A stretch of DNA of 64,000 nucleotides from Escherichia phage A4. The position numbers and the translations under genes are program-made. The notes beneath the pieces were generated by a model. The model did not search any database, had not been told where the DNA came from, and worked only from the letters and a program-made list of their open reading frames with translations. Numbering within the stretch: the first letter of the stretch is position 1; each line of letters starts with the position of its first letter. Location: the sequence record ON286972; one strand, written 5' to 3'. Below are positions 11,222 through 51,469 of this stretch, piece by piece.

Positions 11222-11340
11222 GAAGTTGTGGAACAATTTCGAATCCAATGATATAATGTTTTCATCGGCAGATGTTAAAATGCAAATCACTTCCTCAATG
11301 ATTGAGGGTTCTATAAAAAAGAAATAAAAGGGTATTAACA

Positions 11341-15709: not shown

Positions 15710-16199
<490 letters not shown>

Positions 16200-16216
16200 T
16201 AATTAAAGGTTAAACC

Positions 16217-16595
<379 letters not shown>

Positions 16596-16596
16596 C

Positions 16597-17611
<1,015 letters not shown>

Positions 17612-17614
17612 TTC

Positions 17615-17770
<156 letters not shown>

Positions 17771-17798
17771 CAAAACGAAATGATAATAGGAAATTAAA

Positions 17799-17984
17799 AT
17801 GCAACTTTTAATTCTTTCAATATTGTATATTATTATAATGGTTCCTATATCAATACGTTTAATTATACTTGAACGATTTTTATCGAAACATGGAAATAGA
17901 TCTATGATATTTGTACCAATCGGGCTTATATTGTTTGGTATATTTGCATTTATAATGGGAATTAACGCTACATTCATTTCATAG
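17799..17984 (+). CDS. small membrane protein (61 aa)
   Basis: ORF track; two hydrophobic helices. Confidence 0.45.
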   Translation: MQLLILSILYIIIMVPISIRLIILERFLSKHGNRSMIFVPIGLILFGIFAFIMGINATFIS

Positions 17985-17993
17985 GAAACAAAT

Positions 17994-18475
<482 letters not shown>

Positions 18476-18482
18476 AAGAACG

Positions 18483-18515
<33 letters not shown>

Positions 18516-18516
18516 C

Positions 18517-18572
<56 letters not shown>

Positions 18573-18573
18573 T

Positions 18574-18780
<207 letters not shown>

Positions 18781-18874
18781 GGTTCAAGAAGAAAACTGGG
18801 GTTTTTAACCTAACGAGGTCAATATGAAAGTAAGTAAAGAAACAGCTAAACAGATTGAAGAACTCTGCACTGCT

Positions 18875-18913
<39 letters not shown>

Positions 18914-18914
18914 A

Positions 18915-18966
<52 letters not shown>

Positions 18967-18967
18967 A

Positions 18968-19098
<131 letters not shown>

Positions 19099-31936: not shown

Positions 31937-32899
31937 GTGAAGAAACTAGACTTAAACGCAATTTCCGAAGAAGTACTGGATGAATGTTTTGCGAATGAAG
32001 AAGTCAATCCATTGGAAGCAATTGAACCATCAGAAGTTATTGAAGATGATATTCCACATAAAGTTCGTAGTAAAAGTAACATTAGTCTCAAGCGTCCAGT
32101 AGGTGTGACTAATGAATCCATCATCGAAGAGATTCGTGCTGGAATTAATGTAAAAAAGAACACTGACCTATTACTTCGTTATAACTATGGTATGATCGTT
32201 GATGTTGCTTCAAAGTGTACATGTTATATTCCGTTTGAAGATAAAATTGCATATGGTGTAGAAGGTTTTATGCGAGCACTTAAAACCTTTGATCTTAGTA
32301 AGAATGTCAAATTCATTACATATGCAACAACGTCCGTTTATATGACTATGTATAATGAAAGTTCAGATGCAAATTACATGGTGTACTTACCACGTTATAT
32401 GAGCGTTCATAACATCCAAGTACGTCGATTTAATGAATCATATCAACGTGAACACGGTAAGCGACCTACACCAGAATTAATCTCTGAGAGTACTGGTATC
32501 GAGCTTCAGCACGTTAAGAACTGTTTGTTATACCAGAATGCATATACGACTCTTGATGCACAACTGGGTTCAGATTCAGACGGAACCCTTGGGGATATTC
32601 TGAGTTCATCTGCTCGTGATTATAACCTTAATGTTGATAGCATTTGTAATCCATTACGTTATGCAATCACAGAAATCATTGACGAATTGAGTACTAAAGA
32701 ACGAGAAATTATCATGCGTGTTCATGGTCTTGGGGATTACAAAGCAGAAACCCTTCGTGAAATTTCTGATAATGGATATGTTGATGATAAAGGAAACATT
32801 GTTAAGTCCCGTTCATCTGTGCACCGAAAATATAGTGAAGCTATTCAAAAGCTTAAAAAAATAGTACTTGAAAAAGGGTACGAATACGAAGATTTCTAA
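31937..32899 (+). CDS. phage-encoded sigma70-family RNA polymerase sigma factor
   Basis: GTG start after AGGAG; region-2-like LLLRYNYGMIVDVA...FMRALKTFD...KFITYATTSVYM and region-4-like LSTKEREIIMRVHGL...TLREIS...SRSSVHRKYSEAIQKLKK. Confidence 0.75.
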   Translation: MKKLDLNAISEEVLDECFANEEVNPLEAIEPSEVIEDDIPHKVRSKSNISLKRPVGVTNESIIEEIRAGINVKKNTDLLLRYNYGMIVDVASKCTCYIPFEDKIAYGVEGFMRALKTFDLSKNVKFITYATTSVYMTMYNESSDANYMVYLPRYMSVHNIQVRRFNESYQREHGKRPTPELISESTGIELQHVKNCLLYQNAYTTLDAQLGSDSDGTLGDILSSSARDYNLNVDSICNPLRYAITEIIDELSTKEREIIMRVHGLGDYKAETLREISDNGYVDDKGNIVKSRSSVHRKYSEAIQKLKKIVLEKGYEYEDF

Positions 32900-32906
32900 A
32901 GAAAAA

Positions 32907-32934
32907 GGGTTGACTTAGGTCAGCCCTTTTTTTA
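32907..32934 (+). terminator. intrinsic terminator (GGGTTGAC-TTAG-GTCAGCCC hairpin)
   Basis: Same hairpin family as the downstream terminator/promoter cassettes, followed by TTTTTTT, no good -10. Confidence 0.6.
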
Positions 32935-33457
32935 TGGGACAAAATGGATGTTCATGATACAATGATATTGTACAATTCTGTTGGCATGGATGACATGAAC
33001 CTGATCCACTCGAAAATGTAGAGGGCAGTTGAGCAGTCCAGCAGTGCGAAGTGCAGAAGAAACCCGTCAGATGTGGGCATATTATGAACCCCTCACGGCA
33101 ATGCGGCACTATAAAGAACCACGTTAGGATGGCTGGTGGTTCCTCGATAGACATATAAGGATAACACCTTACGAATTATCTAAGGGAGAGTTATCAAATT
33201 TTGTACAGGAAAGTTGCGTCCAAAATTTGAGTACTCACATTAAGTATTTGATTGCATAGATACTTAATGAAGATACACTATGTTTAAAAGTGTAGACCGT
33301 CATATGAAACTGAAGTAGAGAGAAACAGGATGACCCGCTTTCGTACTCATTAAGAGTAATCTTCAATGCAATAGCTCTGATACCATCAGCGTCAAATTCC
33401 CCTCCCAGCGGGGGGAAGAAAAATCCCTTCCTCAAATCCCGTCAATATTAAAAGTCC

Positions 33458-33486
33458 TTGACAGTTATTAATCATTCGCGTAGAAT
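33458..33486 (+). promoter_or_regulatory. sigma70-type promoter
   Basis: TTGACA-N17-TAGAAT. Confidence 0.5.
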
Positions 33487-33550: not shown

Positions 33551-33760
33551 ATGAATACTACAATCTTTTTAATTGTTGCTCTTTCAATGCAATCCGGTGT
33601 ACAAATTACCCCTATGAATTCATTAAACCAATGTTTTTCTGTACGTGATAGTACATACGAACAAGTAAACAAAAATTCTTGGATGACAGTTAGTGAAGAA
33701 CAAATGTGGTGTTACAAAAGTGATATTAAAGCGAAATTTATTGTAGGACAAACTCAATGA
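33551..33760 (+). CDS. small secreted or membrane protein (69 aa)
   Basis: ORF track; hydrophobic N-terminus; AAGGAA RBS. Confidence 0.45.
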   Translation: MNTTIFLIVALSMQSGVQITPMNSLNQCFSVRDSTYEQVNKNSWMTVSEEQMWCYKSDIKAKFIVGQTQ

Positions 33761-40795: not shown

Positions 40796-40803
40796 TTAAA
40801 AAA

Positions 40804-42296: not shown

Positions 42297-42521
42297 ATGA
42301 AATACATGCTGGTGGCATTAATGTTTGTGAGCACTATAGTACAGGCCAGAATCAAGTACTTTGTGAAGTGTACAAACGTTAGCGGTGGCTACACAGAGAC
42401 ATATCAGGGTAAGTCGGTTAAGATGGCAATACACAATGATAGAGGAACAGTGATTTTCCTTGTGAATGATATAATCATTTTGTACAAACCAGATGTACCA
42501 TGTGAAGTAAAAAGATATTAA
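42297..42521 (+). CDS. small secreted protein (signal peptide)
   Basis: ORF track; MKYMLVALMFVSTIVQA. Confidence 0.45.
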   Translation: MKYMLVALMFVSTIVQARIKYFVKCTNVSGGYTETYQGKSVKMAIHNDRGTVIFLVNDIIILYKPDVPCEVKRY

Positions 42522-43156: not shown

Positions 43157-43588
43157 ATGTGGGTTAACGTTAATAGTACTGAACTTAATGAAATTGATAT
43201 CTTTGCATTTGTTAATCTGGAAACTGATACCTTTGTTCGTGGACGTTTGTTCATGAGTTCTGCCTGTGTTCGCAGTATTGCAGTTATGGATGAACTCGGT
43301 CAGGTAATTGAGTGCCTACCATTACCTGCATGGGCATATAGCAGTACTGAAGAAGATGTAATGCAAAAGATCTTTGAAGGGATCAATAAGCTACCAGGTG
43401 CAGATGTGAAGAATAAGATATTCAACATTGAGAATAAGAACTACAGTGCAGATGTATTGCGTCCTTTAGTGGATTCAGTACTACAAGCTGCATTAGCTAA
43501 ACCTAAGTGCATTATTTTAAAGTACATTCCAGAACTTTCCCTAACTAAAGAGGATATGAAAGGATTTATATTCTCATCGGAGTTGTGA
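43157..43588 (+). CDS. hypothetical protein (143 aa)
   Basis: ORF track. Confidence 0.5.
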   Translation: MWVNVNSTELNEIDIFAFVNLETDTFVRGRLFMSSACVRSIAVMDELGQVIECLPLPAWAYSSTEEDVMQKIFEGINKLPGADVKNKIFNIENKNYSADVLRPLVDSVLQAALAKPKCIILKYIPELSLTKEDMKGFIFSSEL

Positions 43589-43812
43589 TGAAAAGGTATA
43601 AAATTGAATACCTACTTAAAGTAAGAGAGAAAAGTATTAGTAGTGAGAAATACACCAGTGAGATATTCGTCAGAGATGAGTATTACATTGGTGAAAATGA
43701 AGTTGAAGTACTGTTACAATGCATAGAAAATGAATTTCAAGATATGACACGTTATATGTCATTTGAGATATCGTGTGCAAAAGTTACATTCTTGAACAAT
43801 ACTTCATATTAA
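43585..43812 (+). CDS. hypothetical protein (75 aa)
   Basis: ORF track; ATGA overlap. Confidence 0.45.
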   Translation: MMKRYKIEYLLKVREKSISSEKYTSEIFVRDEYYIGENEVEVLLQCIENEFQDMTRYMSFEISCAKVTFLNNTSY

Positions 43813-43816
43813 AAAA

Positions 43817-43856
43817 GGGTTGACTTTTGTTGACCCTTTTTGCTATTCTATAAATA
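43817..43856 (+). promoter_or_regulatory. terminator hairpin with degenerate promoter region (TATAAATA box)
   Basis: GGGTTGAC-TTTT-GTTGACCC hairpin, T-tract, then CTATTCTATAAATATAG. Confidence 0.45.
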
Positions 43857-43902
43857 TAGACATAGAGAATATATAACATGAAATCTATGGAGAGAAATCA
43901 AA

Positions 43903-45441
43903 ATGCCAGGTAAATTCACTGACAAAAACGGCGGCAATATGGCTGGACACTCTGATAAATGGAGTGATGAGAATCGTCGCAAAAATAGTTTCCAAGCGGG
44001 GCAAGGTTCCCGTGGCTCTCGCAACCAAGGAACGGGAGAAGCTGGGAAAGCAAACACAGTTGCATCACAGGGTCTTGATACTTCAAACATGTCCCAGCAT
44101 GAAAAATTGAAGTACTTCAATAGTCTTGGTCTTTTAAATCCGCAGCAGAAGCAACAACTTGCTGCACTGGATAAAGCACAAGAACAACCTAAAGCAGCAC
44201 CAGAAGCACCTGCACAGCCTAAAGCGGCTAATCCGGTAAAAGAACTAAGTGATAAACTTGGGAAGATCTTTGCTAACAAACCACAACTAATTCAAGGTAT
44301 CGTAAAAGCACTTCAAGCGGTTCCTAAAGAACAACTCAAGGATAAAGCACAAGCTGTTCTTGATAGTATGAAAGGGAATACCAGTACTGAACCAACTGAA
44401 GTATTCAGTACTATCATGCGTGCACTTGAAGGTAAGCCACAGGCTGATGATGATATTGAGTTTGATGAACCTGCACAAGAAGTAGCAAATCTTGACTCAA
44501 TCGTTTCTACATTTGGAAAAATTGGTGCAGAAGATAAGACTAATGCACAACAAGTTAAGAATGTACAAGCTAAGTTACAAAATCGTCTTGAAGGTAAAGA
44601 TGAAAAGATTAAACTTGCAGCAGATGCGTTGAAGAAAGCATTAGAATCATATAAACCTGGTGAGAAATCTCGCTTCATTACTGCAATGAATGCAGTATTC
44701 GGTGCAATGAAGAAGTATGAAGCTGAACACGGTGAGAAAGTAACTCCTGATGGATATCTCCTTCGCAAAGATGAAGAAGGTGCTGTTGACCAGAAGGACG
44801 CTGAACCAGACTATGGTAATTTACCAGATACAGTTGATATGGATGGTTACATTCATCGTCCTGATATGCAAGAATTTGGTTCAGACAAAGAAGGTTTTGA
44901 ACATGCTATGGCTGTGTACAAAGCATTAGTCGATAATCCACAATATGCAAATAGTTTTGTAGATGAGTTTGATAGTGCATGGAACAACTACCAAGACAAA
45001 GGATATGATTTCCCAGCAGAAGCAGCATTCTTTGAACTAGGTAAACTTCTTGCTAAAAATGGTATTAATGTTGGTTCTAATGGTGAAGCAAACACTTCAG
45101 AAATGGACGCTGAATTGGCTAAAGATCGTGAAATGACTGATAAGTCAATTCATGAACTACAAAAGCTAATGATGTGGATTGCTGAAATTGGCAAGAAAGC
45201 TGGTGCAGATCCTAAGAGCATTAACAGCAATATTAGTTGGATTAAACATAAGGTTGATAACAATGCCCGTAAATTACAAAAGGCATGGACCGACCTAGTG
45301 AATGGTGCAGACGATGTTGATATCGATTCACCAGAAGCATACGAGTACGCATTGAACACACTTGATAACTCTTTCAAGGATTACGAAAATGGTAACGTAA
45401 CTGATTGGGAAAAGGATATCATGCATAAGTACGGTAAATGA
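43903..45441 (+). CDS. hypothetical Lys/Ala/Glu/Gln-rich protein (512 aa)
   Basis: ORF track; GGAGAG RBS; codon usage richer in GC than neighbours; low-complexity N-terminus. Confidence 0.6.
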   Translation: MPGKFTDKNGGNMAGHSDKWSDENRRKNSFQAGQGSRGSRNQGTGEAGKANTVASQGLDTSNMSQHEKLKYFNSLGLLNPQQKQQLAALDKAQEQPKAAPEAPAQPKAANPVKELSDKLGKIFANKPQLIQGIVKALQAVPKEQLKDKAQAVLDSMKGNTSTEPTEVFSTIMRALEGKPQADDDIEFDEPAQEVANLDSIVSTFGKIGAEDKTNAQQVKNVQAKLQNRLEGKDEKIKLAADALKKALESYKPGEKSRFITAMNAVFGAMKKYEAEHGEKVTPDGYLLRKDEEGAVDQKDAEPDYGNLPDTVDMDGYIHRPDMQEFGSDKEGFEHAMAVYKALVDNPQYANSFVDEFDSAWNNYQDKGYDFPAEAAFFELGKLLAKNGINVGSNGEANTSEMDAELAKDREMTDKSIHELQKLMMWIAEIGKKAGADPKSINSNISWIKHKVDNNARKLQKAWTDLVNGADDVDIDSPEAYEYALNTLDNSFKDYENGNVTDWEKDIMHKYGK

Positions 45442-45450
45442 TAAAAAAAG

Positions 45451-48944: not shown

Positions 48945-50631
48945 ATTAACCCCTAAACAAGCAAAAGAAAAATTCAACAAAAAAGTATTAGAACATAACG
49001 TTCCAATTGAAGCTGATTATAGTAAGTATGAAAATGCCAAATTAAAAAACATCCAAGTAGTTTGCAATGATGTATTAAAACACAAATCAGGCATATCACA
49101 AATATATCTTATGGATCACGCAAACCTCACACACCCATCCAAAAAATTTGGTTGTCCTGAATGTGAAGACTGGTATAATGGTCATGCTAAAAGTTTAGAT
49201 ATTTTAATTGTTAGGGAAAGAATTAATTCTTGGATTAGTACTTATGGCGGGATTATTGATACGGTTAGTGGTGAAGTTGAAGTTTATAAAAATAATTCAT
49301 CCAAAATACCATATATTTGTAAAAATGGAACTAAAAAAACGCTTACTATTTCTTCACTTGGCGATGAAATCGGTTGTAATTGTTCTAAATGTAAAGCTGA
49401 ATTAATATCAGAAATCGAAGATAACAATGAATATACATCCATGACTACTGTTGATGATTGTGTTACAATTTCCCATTTTAAATTTGGGGATGATGTTGCA
49501 TTCTCGTGGATTTCACCATTGGAAATGAAAAAACATGGTTACTGTCTTGCCGAAAAAATGAAAGAAAAAGCATTGTCGGTTGGTAAAAATATTATTGGAT
49601 ATGCAATATCATCTCTTAGTGAATGGAAAAATGAAAAAACTCCTGTAATAACCGAACACGAAGGAGTATTATATCGTATTTCCAAAGCATCATATTTGAT
49701 CAATAATAATATAGTACATAGACCACATTATACAAAAAATAATTTTTTATATTATTTTTACAAATGTTCACCTAACAATCAACTTATTACACCAATCCTA
49801 ATACCTGATGATATTGGTACAAAAAAGAAAATTAAAGTATGTTATAAATCATGTGGGTGTGAATATGATATATCTGTGGACGTTATAATGAACAGAAATT
49901 TAAAAACTTGTGGAAACTGTAAAAATATAGATACTAATAAATTTATAGAACAGTGCTTGGAGTTCACTTCAAGTGGAGATTATATCTATGATAGAGTAAA
50001 CTATATAAATCAAAGTACACCTGTAACTATAGTTCATAAAATTTACGGCGAATTCAAAAGTACACCACAAAATCACTTAATACATTTAAAAAACGGTTTG
50101 AAATATGATACAGCTAACTTTAAAATAAAAAATTTAACTCAATTTAAAATTAAAGCAAATGAAGTTCATAATAACTTATATAATTATGATAAAGTTGATT
50201 ATGTAAATTCTTCAACGAAAGTATTAATAACTCATCCAGTATATGGAGACTTTTGGCAAACTCCAGCAAGTCACCTTGGTGGGTGTGGTCATCCACTTGC
50301 GGCTGGTCATTCTCAGCAATATGCATATATTCATAATATTTTGGATGGTGTTTTATCTGTAGCATTGAAATATGGGATTGAAAAGCAGAAAGGTAAGAGG
50401 GTGATGCAGCAAAATAAAAAATCCATGTTTCAAGTTCAATCTCTGTATACTTATTTTTTTCCATCTGTATACGAATGTAAGCAAGCTGAAAAAGAATGTA
50501 AGAAACTATTTGGTAAAGGTGTTTTAACTAAACAAGAAATGCCAGACGGGTATACTGAAACAACTACACCAAACAACATAGATAAAATTATTGCCATCTA
50601 TGAAAAATGGGGTGGGGTGAAACAAAACTAA
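48934..50631 (+). CDS. Cys-rich protein with three internal repeats (565 aa)
   Basis: ORF track; CPECEDW, CNCSKC, CGCEYD, CGNCKN pairs; repeat Y.YD.V.Y.N.ST.V.I.H..YG.F..TP..HL three times. Confidence 0.6.
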   Translation: MPAKLTPKQAKEKFNKKVLEHNVPIEADYSKYENAKLKNIQVVCNDVLKHKSGISQIYLMDHANLTHPSKKFGCPECEDWYNGHAKSLDILIVRERINSWISTYGGIIDTVSGEVEVYKNNSSKIPYICKNGTKKTLTISSLGDEIGCNCSKCKAELISEIEDNNEYTSMTTVDDCVTISHFKFGDDVAFSWISPLEMKKHGYCLAEKMKEKALSVGKNIIGYAISSLSEWKNEKTPVITEHEGVLYRISKASYLINNNIVHRPHYTKNNFLYYFYKCSPNNQLITPILIPDDIGTKKKIKVCYKSCGCEYDISVDVIMNRNLKTCGNCKNIDTNKFIEQCLEFTSSGDYIYDRVNYINQSTPVTIVHKIYGEFKSTPQNHLIHLKNGLKYDTANFKIKNLTQFKIKANEVHNNLYNYDKVDYVNSSTKVLITHPVYGDFWQTPASHLGGCGHPLAAGHSQQYAYIHNILDGVLSVALKYGIEKQKGKRVMQQNKKSMFQVQSLYTYFFPSVYECKQAEKECKKLFGKGVLTKQEMPDGYTETTTPNNIDKIIAIYEKWGGVKQN

Positions 50632-50637
50632 ACAAAA

Positions 50638-50671
50638 GGGTTGACTTCGGTCAGCCCTTTTTGCTATAATT
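50638..50671 (+). promoter_or_regulatory. terminator/promoter cassette
   Basis: GGGTTGAC-TTCG-GTCAGCCC, TTTTT, TATAAT, TATTTCATC. Confidence 0.6.
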
Positions 50672-50698
50672 ATTTCATCAACTGATGAGGACAACGAA

Positions 50699-51469
50699 AT
50701 GACCAGAGAAGCACGCAGCATTCAAATTCAGAAAAACTTCAACTCCATGATGGTTGCTCTTGAGTGTTTGCTCGATGATAGCAGTACTGTAAAAAGTATG
50801 GTTGTCAGCGGTGCTCCTGGTGTTGGTAAGACTTACACCCTCTCTAAACGCCTCCAGAAAGCACATGACGCGGCAGAATGGAACGTAGCTACCATCAGTG
50901 GTAAAATGACCACTCTGGCTCTGTACGAAGTTCTGTACAAGAATCGTCATAGCACCAACGTGTTAGTACTGGATGATATGGACAGCATCTTTGATTCAGA
51001 AGACGGTATGAACCTGCTCAAAGCAGTACTGGATAGTGGCAAGCGTACTGTTTCTTATATGACTAGCTCGAAGTATCTGAGCAGCAACGGTATCCCTAAC
51101 AGCTTTGATTTTAATGGTCGCATCGTATTCATTACTAACAAAGATTTAGCACTGAATGCTAAAGCTAAAACTAAAATGTCTGCTCACTATGCTGCTCTTA
51201 TGTCTCGCTCTGTATACGTTGACTTACAGATCCAGACCAAAAGCGATATCATGATTCACATTGAGAACGTGATGAACCAGACCAACATTCTGGAATCTAA
51301 GGGTATTAACAGTAATGGTAGTAAAGCAATCCTGAACTGGATGTTGAAGCACGAAGATTCACTTCGTTCACCTTCACTGCGTATGCCACTGTTGATTTCG
51401 GCAGTATATAACAACAACCCATACGATTGGGAAGAGCAATGTGAAAACTTGTTCCTGGAGAAAAATTAA
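50699..51469 (+). CDS. P-loop ATPase (AAA-like)
   Basis: Walker A GAPGVGKT, Walker B VLVLDDMD; GC-richer codon usage than neighbours. Confidence 0.7.
   Translation: MTREARSIQIQKNFNSMMVALECLLDDSSTVKSMVVSGAPGVGKTYTLSKRLQKAHDAAEWNVATISGKMTTLALYEVLYKNRHSTNVLVLDDMDSIFDSEDGMNLLKAVLDSGKRTVSYMTSSKYLSSNGIPNSFDFNGRIVFITNKDLALNAKAKTKMSAHYAALMSRSVYVDLQIQTKSDIMIHIENVMNQTNILESKGINSNGSKAILNWMLKHEDSLRSPSLRMPLLISAVYNNNPYDWEEQCENLFLEKN

Follow-up and report, generated by a model that had tools for sequence, protein, structure and literature searches.

A conserved family of large structured RNAs encoded at several dispersed loci in Rak2-like jumbo phages

Earlier classes of large RNA have proved to be ribozymes, guide RNAs (HEARO) or RNA-only cages (GOLLD and ROOL, the large, 'ornate' and independently transcribed RNAs of phages and prophages). 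Among other folded RNAs, ColE1 RNA II is a preprimer of ~550 nucleotides (nt) in which an upstream G-run pairs with the downstream template DNA, HK022 put and Bacillus EAR are antiterminator RNAs of 70-125 nt that act on the polymerase that made them (EAR contains a pseudoknot), and the phage-encoded phi29 pRNA is a single-copy RNA of 174 nt whose loop-loop complementarity co-varies between relatives. Here we compare with these an element in a 64,000-nt stretch of Escherichia phage A4 (ON286972; hereafter the window), which is 92-94% identical to the Asteriusvirus phages 121Q, PBECO4 and G17. The segment at ~32970-33449 on the plus strand almost certainly belongs to a genuine family of structured-RNA genes, and the copy in the window is very probably an intact gene for a highly structured non-coding RNA (ncRNA) of ~480 nt, with the folded RNA itself as the functional product. 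An earlier, sequence-only reading had singled out 32935-33457 as a non-coding island and proposed a structured ncRNA, an intron or ribozyme remnant, or a decayed horizontally acquired gene. The first proposal is strongly supported by covariation, by a promoter of the RNA's own and by a conserved multi-copy family.

The region is conserved across genera. A sensitive BLASTN search against 50,697 phage records, one of the checks proposed with the sequence-only reading, returned ~70 matching records, and all those listed are jumbo phages (310-386 kb) with hosts in Escherichia, Klebsiella, Salmonella, Erwinia, Yersinia, Serratia, Pectobacterium, Cronobacter and Xanthomonas. The family is present in every Rak2-like genus examined. 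Outside Asteriusvirus the identity is ~70% over ~440 nt, and matches at this level include Serratia BF, GAP32, CBB and Yersinia, Xanthomonas, Salmonella and Klebsiella jumbo phages. Neutral intergenic DNA does not remain alignable between genera in this way. The gene neighbourhoods of the matches differ widely, and the matched DNA is nearly always intergenic and either unannotated or covered only by short 'hypothetical protein' calls. Pattern scans of IMG/VR and of metagenomes, followed by an nhmmer profile filter, brought the collection to 86 full-length copies (55 non-redundant at 95% identity), with pairwise identities of ~55-65%; the long contigs that carry copies are nearly all of jumbo-phage size. 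Thirteen IMG/VR pattern matches without an nhmmer match look protein-coding and were set aside as chance matches.

At least 16 helices and three pseudoknots (PK1, PK2 and PK3) are maintained by compensatory changes. RNAalifold was run on the first 10 sequences and predicted 89 pairs, 43 of them with compensatory changes; stacked covarying columns, sought on 33 sequences, gave nested helices and three long-range pairings. The structure scored on the 55-sequence alignment has 16 helices and 81 pairs, and 67 of these pairs have compensatory changes on both sides. Canonical pairs fill 96.7% of 4,062 cells, against 74.4% after shuffling of columns and 33-42% when the partner is slid by 1-3 columns. 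Double-change cells number 883, against 253 in the shuffles, and none of 500 shuffles reached the observed value on any measure. Because the helices had been chosen on related alignments, the pairs were recounted in 26 metagenome sequences outside the helix derivation, in which 96.2% of nested pairs and 93.9% of pseudoknot pairs are kept. In this held-out set pairing is complete (100%) in PK3 and also in PK2, for which 10 distinct strand pairs occur, and the two strands of PK1 change together, as in CUGUUUGA/UCAAGCAG versus CUGAAUGA/UCAUUCAG. At paired positions G-U outnumbers A-C by 213 to 30, which favours an RNA read from the plus strand.

PK1 (alignment columns 18-25/112-119) has compensatory changes in 6 of its 8 pairs. 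PK2 is a loop contact of 6-7 base pairs with class-specific strands, and would be compatible with either intra- or intermolecular pairing. The helices of the 3' core (13 to 16) are 95.7-100% paired, and 3/5, 5/5, 4/5 and 3/3 of their pairs, respectively, covary. Conservation extends beyond pairing: ~70 columns, mostly outside helices, are invariant in 55 of 55 sequences. No class-specific, single-stranded, guide-like segment was found in the family. The module UACAAUAUAGAUCCGUCCAAAAUU lies in a different hairpin in other subfamilies (alignment columns ~335-365 versus ~505-540) and thus behaves as a transplantable peripheral element that has moved between helices across subfamilies; tertiary-contact modules of large ribozymes and ornate RNAs relocate likewise.

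Several paralogs, diverged from one another and syntenic in position, are present per genome. Asteriusvirus OR844650 (351,992 base pairs, unannotated), the only genome scanned in full, has four copies on one strand, at 18.3, 128.3, 208.1 and 261.5 kb. At least five copies each were detected in GAP32, CBB and Yersinia Yen9-04 (~30, 94, 175, 260 and 336 kb, one strand), and likewise at least five in Mimasvirus and Eneladusvirus genomes, the counts outside OR844650 being lower bounds and possibly incomplete. Four copies lie at 66, 162, 239 and 327 kb of a 349-kb metagenome contig. The copies are widely dispersed, with a spacing never below ~44 kb, and by the minimum gap this spacing is regular in GAP32, CBB and Yen9-04 (P 0.005-0.02) and in the 349-kb contig (P 0.002). 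The gaps of OR844650 (110, 80, 53 and 109 kb) are only weakly regular (P ~0.06 by the same formula). A pattern of three evenly spaced copies in 121Q was abandoned when the full scan of a related genome yielded a fourth copy and weaker regularity. The genes flanking the RNA differ between paralog classes; no shared protein partner was found beside it, and since the flanking proteins vary by class, there is no linked protein partner.

Upstream of nearly all 55 family members we found TGAAAC or TGGGAC, a spacer of 14-18 nt and the extended -10 element TGnTATAAT, and we infer that a separate phage-type promoter drives the transcription of each copy. The first PK1 strand follows the predicted start by only ~8-10 nt in the window copy and in class-A copies, which leaves no room for a 5' exon. 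Many subfamilies have a variable 5'-terminal hairpin, often with a U-run, inserted between the start and the core. The promoter class, TG(G/A)(G/A)AC with the same spacer and TGnTATAAT, is not private to the RNA, as 17 sites are found in OR844650, all on one strand, and three plus-strand sites in the window (11230-11257, ~32935-32963 and 42444-42475). Possibly this class is a promoter type peculiar to the phage itself; in the window, the gene immediately before the RNA encodes a sigma factor. One of the 17 OR844650 sites precedes an apparent transfer RNA (tRNA) gene (GGTGAAGTGGCAGAGCGGTT...).

Near the 3' end, two direct repeats of 10-11 nt flank the C5/G6 hairpin throughout the family. The proximal repeat, A(U/C)CA-NN-GUCA(G/A) (alignment columns ~575-585), precedes the C-rich hairpin, and the distal repeat, AA(U/C)C-NN-GUCA(G/A) (alignment columns ~668-680), lies in the tail. 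The two co-vary in identity (NN is UC/UC, GC/GC, CC/CC, AC/AC or GU/GU), with at least six independent events, and their versions differ among paralogs of one genome; the window copy is one of the exceptions (GC versus CC). We found no exact 6-mer complementary to the repeats within the RNA or its flanks, no complement of the 11-mer with up to one mismatch in whole loci, save the trivial opposite-strand self-match, and no 5- to 7-mer complement when wobble was allowed, where UGAG alone recurred, an invariant match that shows no covariation with the repeats. As the repeats agree in identity and not in complementarity, their possible role is strand transfer or pairing of RNA with template DNA; a need for either repeat, as RNA, to pair with the template DNA of its partner would be expected to produce this pattern.

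The RNA class is new, in that it matches no Rfam family and is not described in the literature searched. With the 4,227 models of Rfam 15, which include GOLLD, ROOL, OLE, HEARO, RNase P, transfer-messenger RNA (tmRNA), group I and II introns and riboswitches, the whole window gave only 6 tRNAs at gathering thresholds. At E<=10, the scan proposed with the sequence-only reading returned nothing for the region except terminator-like small-RNA noise at 32850-32980, and in 12 further loci (11 with a family copy) no match overlapped an element. A search of the literature on jumbo-phage ncRNAs and transcriptomes, and for the invariant motifs as text, found no description of the family. ARAGORN detected no tmRNA in the window, and this class was rejected for want of an ARAGORN or Rfam match and of a tRNA-like domain. 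RNase P RNA was rejected likewise, with no Rfam match, no covarying helix between the 5' and 3' ends (P1) and no long-range equivalent of P4. The segment ACAG..ACCCGCUU, which we take to resemble CR-V of RNase P, forms a local hairpin (helix 15). An arrangement like P4/P5/P6 can be drawn for 33050-33142; the three covariation-supported pseudoknots have another topology. A hammerhead-like reading of CAGAUGAG...GAA was rejected by eye, as U4, which is essential, is absent throughout and A6 is variable. Four ncRNAs have been described in PA5oct, a distant relative for which RNA-seq exists (PMC7318152). Two of them, ncRNA002 and ncRNA004, gave neither an nhmmer match to the family nor a match to the covariance model of the 3' domain. 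By eye, ncRNA004 had been a candidate homologue (CUAUAAA-hairpin-AUAGAC, and a 3' C-run/G-run hairpin with a ~24-nt tail), and it was rejected on these two negative results.

GOLLD and ROOL resemble the family in being phage-encoded and hundreds of nucleotides long, with many pseudoknots, conserved unpaired bases and covarying loop-loop contacts, and are not known to have a linked partner protein gene (bioRxiv 10.1101/2024.12.08.627333). The family differs from them in matching no Rfam model, in its virulent enterobacterial jumbo-phage hosts, in its 4-5 diverged paralogs per genome and in its identity-covarying 3' repeats. RNAs of the GOLLD and ROOL type assemble as homo-oligomers through intermolecular loop contacts. 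With ColE1 RNA II and the R-loop transcripts of T4 oriF and oriG the family shares a dedicated promoter, here a predicted one, the lack of a terminator (in most copies), and a G-run and a C-run near the RNA end, followed by AT-rich DNA; with RNA II it also shares a folded RNA of ~500 nt. T4-type phages have several origins in each genome. The structural conservation of the family is far greater than that of the ColE1 and T4 systems. Like put and EAR, it is a structured RNA at the head of genes read in its own direction, in a phage that relies on the host polymerase; it is longer than they are (480-600 nt), the genes downstream of some copies are not co-directional, and several copies have a separate promoter after them. 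The class-specific strands of PK2 recall phi29 pRNA, which belongs to a different packaging system and is neither multi-copy nor as large. RNase P RNA, tmRNA and group I introns are similar in size, pseudoknots and conserved junctions, and the family has none of their end-closing helix, P4-like helix, tRNA-like domain or exons.

Nothing about the RNA has decayed, as it is intact and all relatives conserve it; we infer that it is neither a message nor a relic. A protein-coding gene in decay, or an element that works only as DNA (for instance a cruciform or a protein-binding array), would fit the two to five short 'hypothetical protein' coding sequences placed over the RNA gene in several GenBank records (OR699182, OR699282, PP886230, PQ330092, MK773491, LT960551 and others) and the UE-S1 record, in which part of the gene is annotated only as a repeat_region. 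The coding sequences are almost certainly spurious. Pfam matched nothing in the region, the compensatory changes found throughout include strand-specific G-U pairs in the excess given above, and the long-range pseudoknots are kept in the held-out sequences. This covariation pattern refutes such a gene or element as far as sequence analysis allows, and we regard it as extremely improbable; the proposal of a decayed horizontally acquired gene, which has no protein signal behind it, is not supported either. A self-splicing intron of group I or II, or a remnant of one, would account for the size, the pseudoknots and the many conserved unpaired bases, phage genomes often carry several introns, and GAUAGAC and AUAUAG presumably recall the R/S-type core sequences of phage group I introns. 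Against this, no Rfam intron model matched the window or the 12 further loci even at E<=10, a promoter lies directly upstream and leaves the window and class-A copies without a 5' exon, the flanking genes are complete and differ between loci, and the order of helices does not appear to give the P3/P7 topology. The intron reading is largely refuted, with hardly any probability left to it, and the intron or ribozyme remnant of the sequence-only reading is not supported, given the intactness of the RNA and, in the window and class-A copies, the missing 5' exon.

What the RNA does is a matter of lesser confidence. Our tentative preference is that it works mainly as a free, folded and stable RNA of the GOLLD and ROOL kind. 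The promoter of each copy would drive its transcription, the transcript would fold into a compact, stable RNA, and the folded RNA would act as a scaffold binding protein or nucleic acid, as a self-assembling particle or as a ribozyme, like GOLLD and ROOL. Several observations weigh against this. Both ends of the RNA are predicted ones, and in most copies the conserved 3' end lacks a terminator. The helices were picked on related alignments, which somewhat inflates their scores, and the z-score of single-sequence folding is weak (-2.0), so that the case rests on conservation and covariation. In some classes a downstream open reading frame (ORF) starts soon after the RNA with no obvious promoter between, and with neither terminator nor promoter there the RNA could be a leader instead of a free RNA. 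Finally, the dispersed same-strand copies and the identity-covarying 3' repeats may point to a function bound to the locus on the DNA, because a diffusing RNA would need neither.

A cis-acting leader of the downstream operon, working by antitermination of the put and EAR type, by riboswitch-like sensing or by stabilising the messenger RNA, is accordingly supported by the lack of a terminator in most copies and by the class-5 copies, in which an ORF starts ~22 nt past the conserved TTCTTGAC-hairpin with no clear promoter between. Each gene family that recurs downstream across loci lies on the strand of the RNA, several subfamilies have a terminator-like hairpin with a U-run inside the 3' region (in some, just before the C-rich hairpin), and several copies per genome before different operons are the usual pattern of a cis-regulator. 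The downstream genes are, however, unrelated between classes, the window and class-A copies are followed by good sigma-70 promoters of their own, one copy in Salmonella phage 7t3 and one in 121Q have annotated genes of the opposite strand on either side, and known antiterminator RNAs and riboswitches are several times smaller than this RNA with its 480-600 nt and three pseudoknots; we consider a leader quite improbable. Somewhat better placed, and still unlikely, is an origin-associated preprimer or R-loop RNA on the ColE1 model, a transcript that would stay hybridised near its 3' end and prime or open the DNA for a T4-type replisome. T4 has at least five origins, of which oriF and oriG combine a promoter with an AT-rich unwinding element, in which an R-loop persists (PMC3016281). 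The dispersed same-strand copies, regular in GAP32, CBB, Yen9-04 and the 349-kb contig, fit such a role, as do the 3' repeats that co-vary in identity without a complementary partner in cis, the 40 nt past the conserved end, which are 77-81% AT, and the missing terminators. The R-loops of T4 origins, on the other hand, require no specific sequence (PMC3016281), whereas ~70 invariant bases and three pseudoknots are kept here across ~45% divergence. The weakly regular spacing in OR844650, the possibly incomplete copy counts of the other genomes, the GC skew, which does not change sign around 33 kb, and the window copy with its non-identical repeats also speak against it. More broadly, the family might represent a new class of locus-bound functional RNA or, equally novel, a new self-assembling RNA particle or ribozyme class, a possibility that we regard as doubtful. 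If locus-bound, the ~500-nt transcript would mark several dispersed sites on the 350-kb phage chromosome and act there, for example as a structured preprimer or R-loop that would found origins through pairing of the upstream repeat with the downstream template DNA.

The sequence-only reading had described the island as GC-richer than its surroundings, and this is borne out: 32935-33457 has 41.3% GC against a window mean of 34.4% (standard deviation 2.9%, 523-nt windows), the 98.9th percentile. Higher values occur only at ~43500-44000 and ~50500-51000 (up to 44%). We agree that there is no convincing ORF on either strand, as the longest encode 79 and 66 amino acids on the minus strand and 32-35 on the plus strand, and five ORFs of 32-79 amino acids gave no significant Pfam family (best, a sub-threshold match of 12.7 bits). 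The stem read as TTCCCC..GGGGAA exists as the hairpin TTCCCCTCCCAGCGGGGGGAA, and a terminator and a promoter do bracket the region. Only the extent of the island was drawn slightly wide, since its first 29 nt (32935-32963) are the promoter of the RNA and the conserved RNA itself occupies ~32970-33449. The terminator belongs to the upstream sigma-factor gene; a terminator is annotated in the GenBank record of phage G17, and a simple terminator scan missed it. The promoter on the far side appears to serve the downstream small genes, with a first ORF at 33551-33760. The coordinates of these features and of the parts of the RNA are collected in Table 1.

Table 1. Features in and around the RNA gene, in window coordinates
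Feature	Position	Strand	Evidence or remark
Intrinsic terminator of the upstream sigma-factor gene, AAAAAGGGTTGACTTAGGTCAGCCCTTTTTTT	32902-32933	+	8-base-pair stem, UUAG loop, U7
RNA promoter: TGGGAC, 14-nt spacer, extended -10 TGATACAAT	32935-32940; 32955-32963	+	
Structured ncRNA, ~480 nt	32970-33449	+	nhmmer family profile; covariation; G-U:A-C; 5' end from promoter, 3' end from limit of conservation
PK1: CTGTTGG with CCAGCAG in loop of hairpin 33033-33047	32978-32984 with 33038-33044	+	covariation
Hairpin with conserved GAAAAUGUA loop	33001-33028	+	
Helix AGTGC/GCACT around hairpin CCGT...ACGG	33050-33110	+	helices 5 and 6, 100% and 99.5% paired
Invariant internal-loop strands AGAAGAAAC and CAATGCG	within 33050-33110	+	
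Hairpin GAACC/GGTTC	33116-33142	+	helix 7, 5/5 pairs covary
Invariant junction GATAGACATAT / GAUAGACAUAU	33146-33156	+	
Hairpin TAAG/CTTA	33156-33171	+	helix 8, 3/4 pairs covary
Invariant TAAGGGAG / UAAGGGAG	33181-33188	+	
Helix GAGUU/UACUC enclosing module UACAGGAAAGUUGCGUCCAAAAUU	33188-33236	+	
Module TACAGGAAAGTTGCGTCCAAAATT	33204-33227	+	
Long hairpin, loop ATTGCA (33251-33256)	33238-33269	+	
PK2: ATTGCA with TGCAAT	33251-33256 with 33367-33372	+	helix 11, 99.7% paired, 6/6 pairs covary
Invariant GACCGT (3' core)	33295-33300	+	
PK3: GTCAT with ATGAC, in loop of hairpin GAGAG/CTTTC	33299-33303 with 33330-33334	+	
Invariant ACCCGC and hairpin ACT/AGT (3' core)	within 33295-33365	+	
Enclosing helix TGAAG/CTTCA	33311-33315 / 33361-33365	+	
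Proximal repeat CAGCGTCAA	33387-33395	+	
C-run/G-run hairpin	33397-33417	+	
Distal repeat CCCGTCAA, in tail	33438-33445	+	
Conserved tail	end near 33449	+	
Sigma-70-type promoter TTGACA-17-TAGAAT	33458-33486	+	11/12 matches; outside RNA

Further observations concern the surroundings of the RNA. A second conserved block lies ~60-150 nt downstream in most loci and consists of a GUGUUAAAC motif, an AT-rich stretch, a hairpin whose loop is of the CGAAGUGA type and, after it, UUCUUGAC with a small covarying hairpin behind it, which can contain the Shine-Dalgarno sequence of the following gene; in the window copy a plain sigma-70 promoter takes the place of this block. At the same locus downstream of the sigma gene, phage TH47 (MT446416, 145642-147576) has an ORF of ~230 amino acids at ~390-1040 of the locus, between the RNA promoter and an intact RNA of a different subtype; from its sequence it looks like a homing endonuclease of the HNH/AP2 type. 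Phage ph0011 has a divergent allele at the sigma-gene locus (78-85% identical). The terminator at 32902-32933 is one of a repeat family of ~10 similar copies in the window; near-identical ones (AAAGGGTTGAC...GTCAGCCCTTTTTTT) are also found at 40798, 41155, 42528, 43812, 45445, 47913, 48643 and 50634. At least those at 45445, 48643 and 50634 end exactly at the start of a TGnTATAAT extended -10 promoter, and such pairs would be compact terminator-promoter modules. The six tRNA genes of the window are on the plus strand at 16019-19088 (Ser-TGA, Gly-TCC, Ser-GCT, Met-CAT, Asn-GTT and Thr-TGT).

Beyond phage records, scanning 100,044 genomes of bacteria and archaea yielded three true matches. Two are in isolate assemblies, on a 185-kb contig of Silvania hatchlandensis and a 299-kb contig of Enterobacteriaceae RIT714, and one is on a 2.8-kb contig binned into a Clostridium metagenome-assembled genome. 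The probable sources are jumbo phages that persist in the host or were co-assembled with it (compare bioRxiv 10.1101/2024.12.31.630880), or else an error of binning. Judged from the scan matches alone, there is no sign of a chromosomal homologue among these genomes.

Few large RNA classes of bacteria or phages keep this much conserved tertiary structure. The family resides in cultivable phages of E. coli, Klebsiella, Salmonella and Erwinia, including phage-therapy candidates, and can therefore be readily studied. For annotation, the spurious 'hypothetical proteins' over the RNA gene need correcting in many GenBank records. With several ancient paralogs in every Rak2-like genus examined, the RNA is apparently indispensable. 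If the RNA is locus-bound, the family would identify the replication origins of Rak2-like phages together with a new way of making them, and whether locus-bound, a particle or a ribozyme, it would be the first function-linked large RNA of the enterobacterial jumbo phages.

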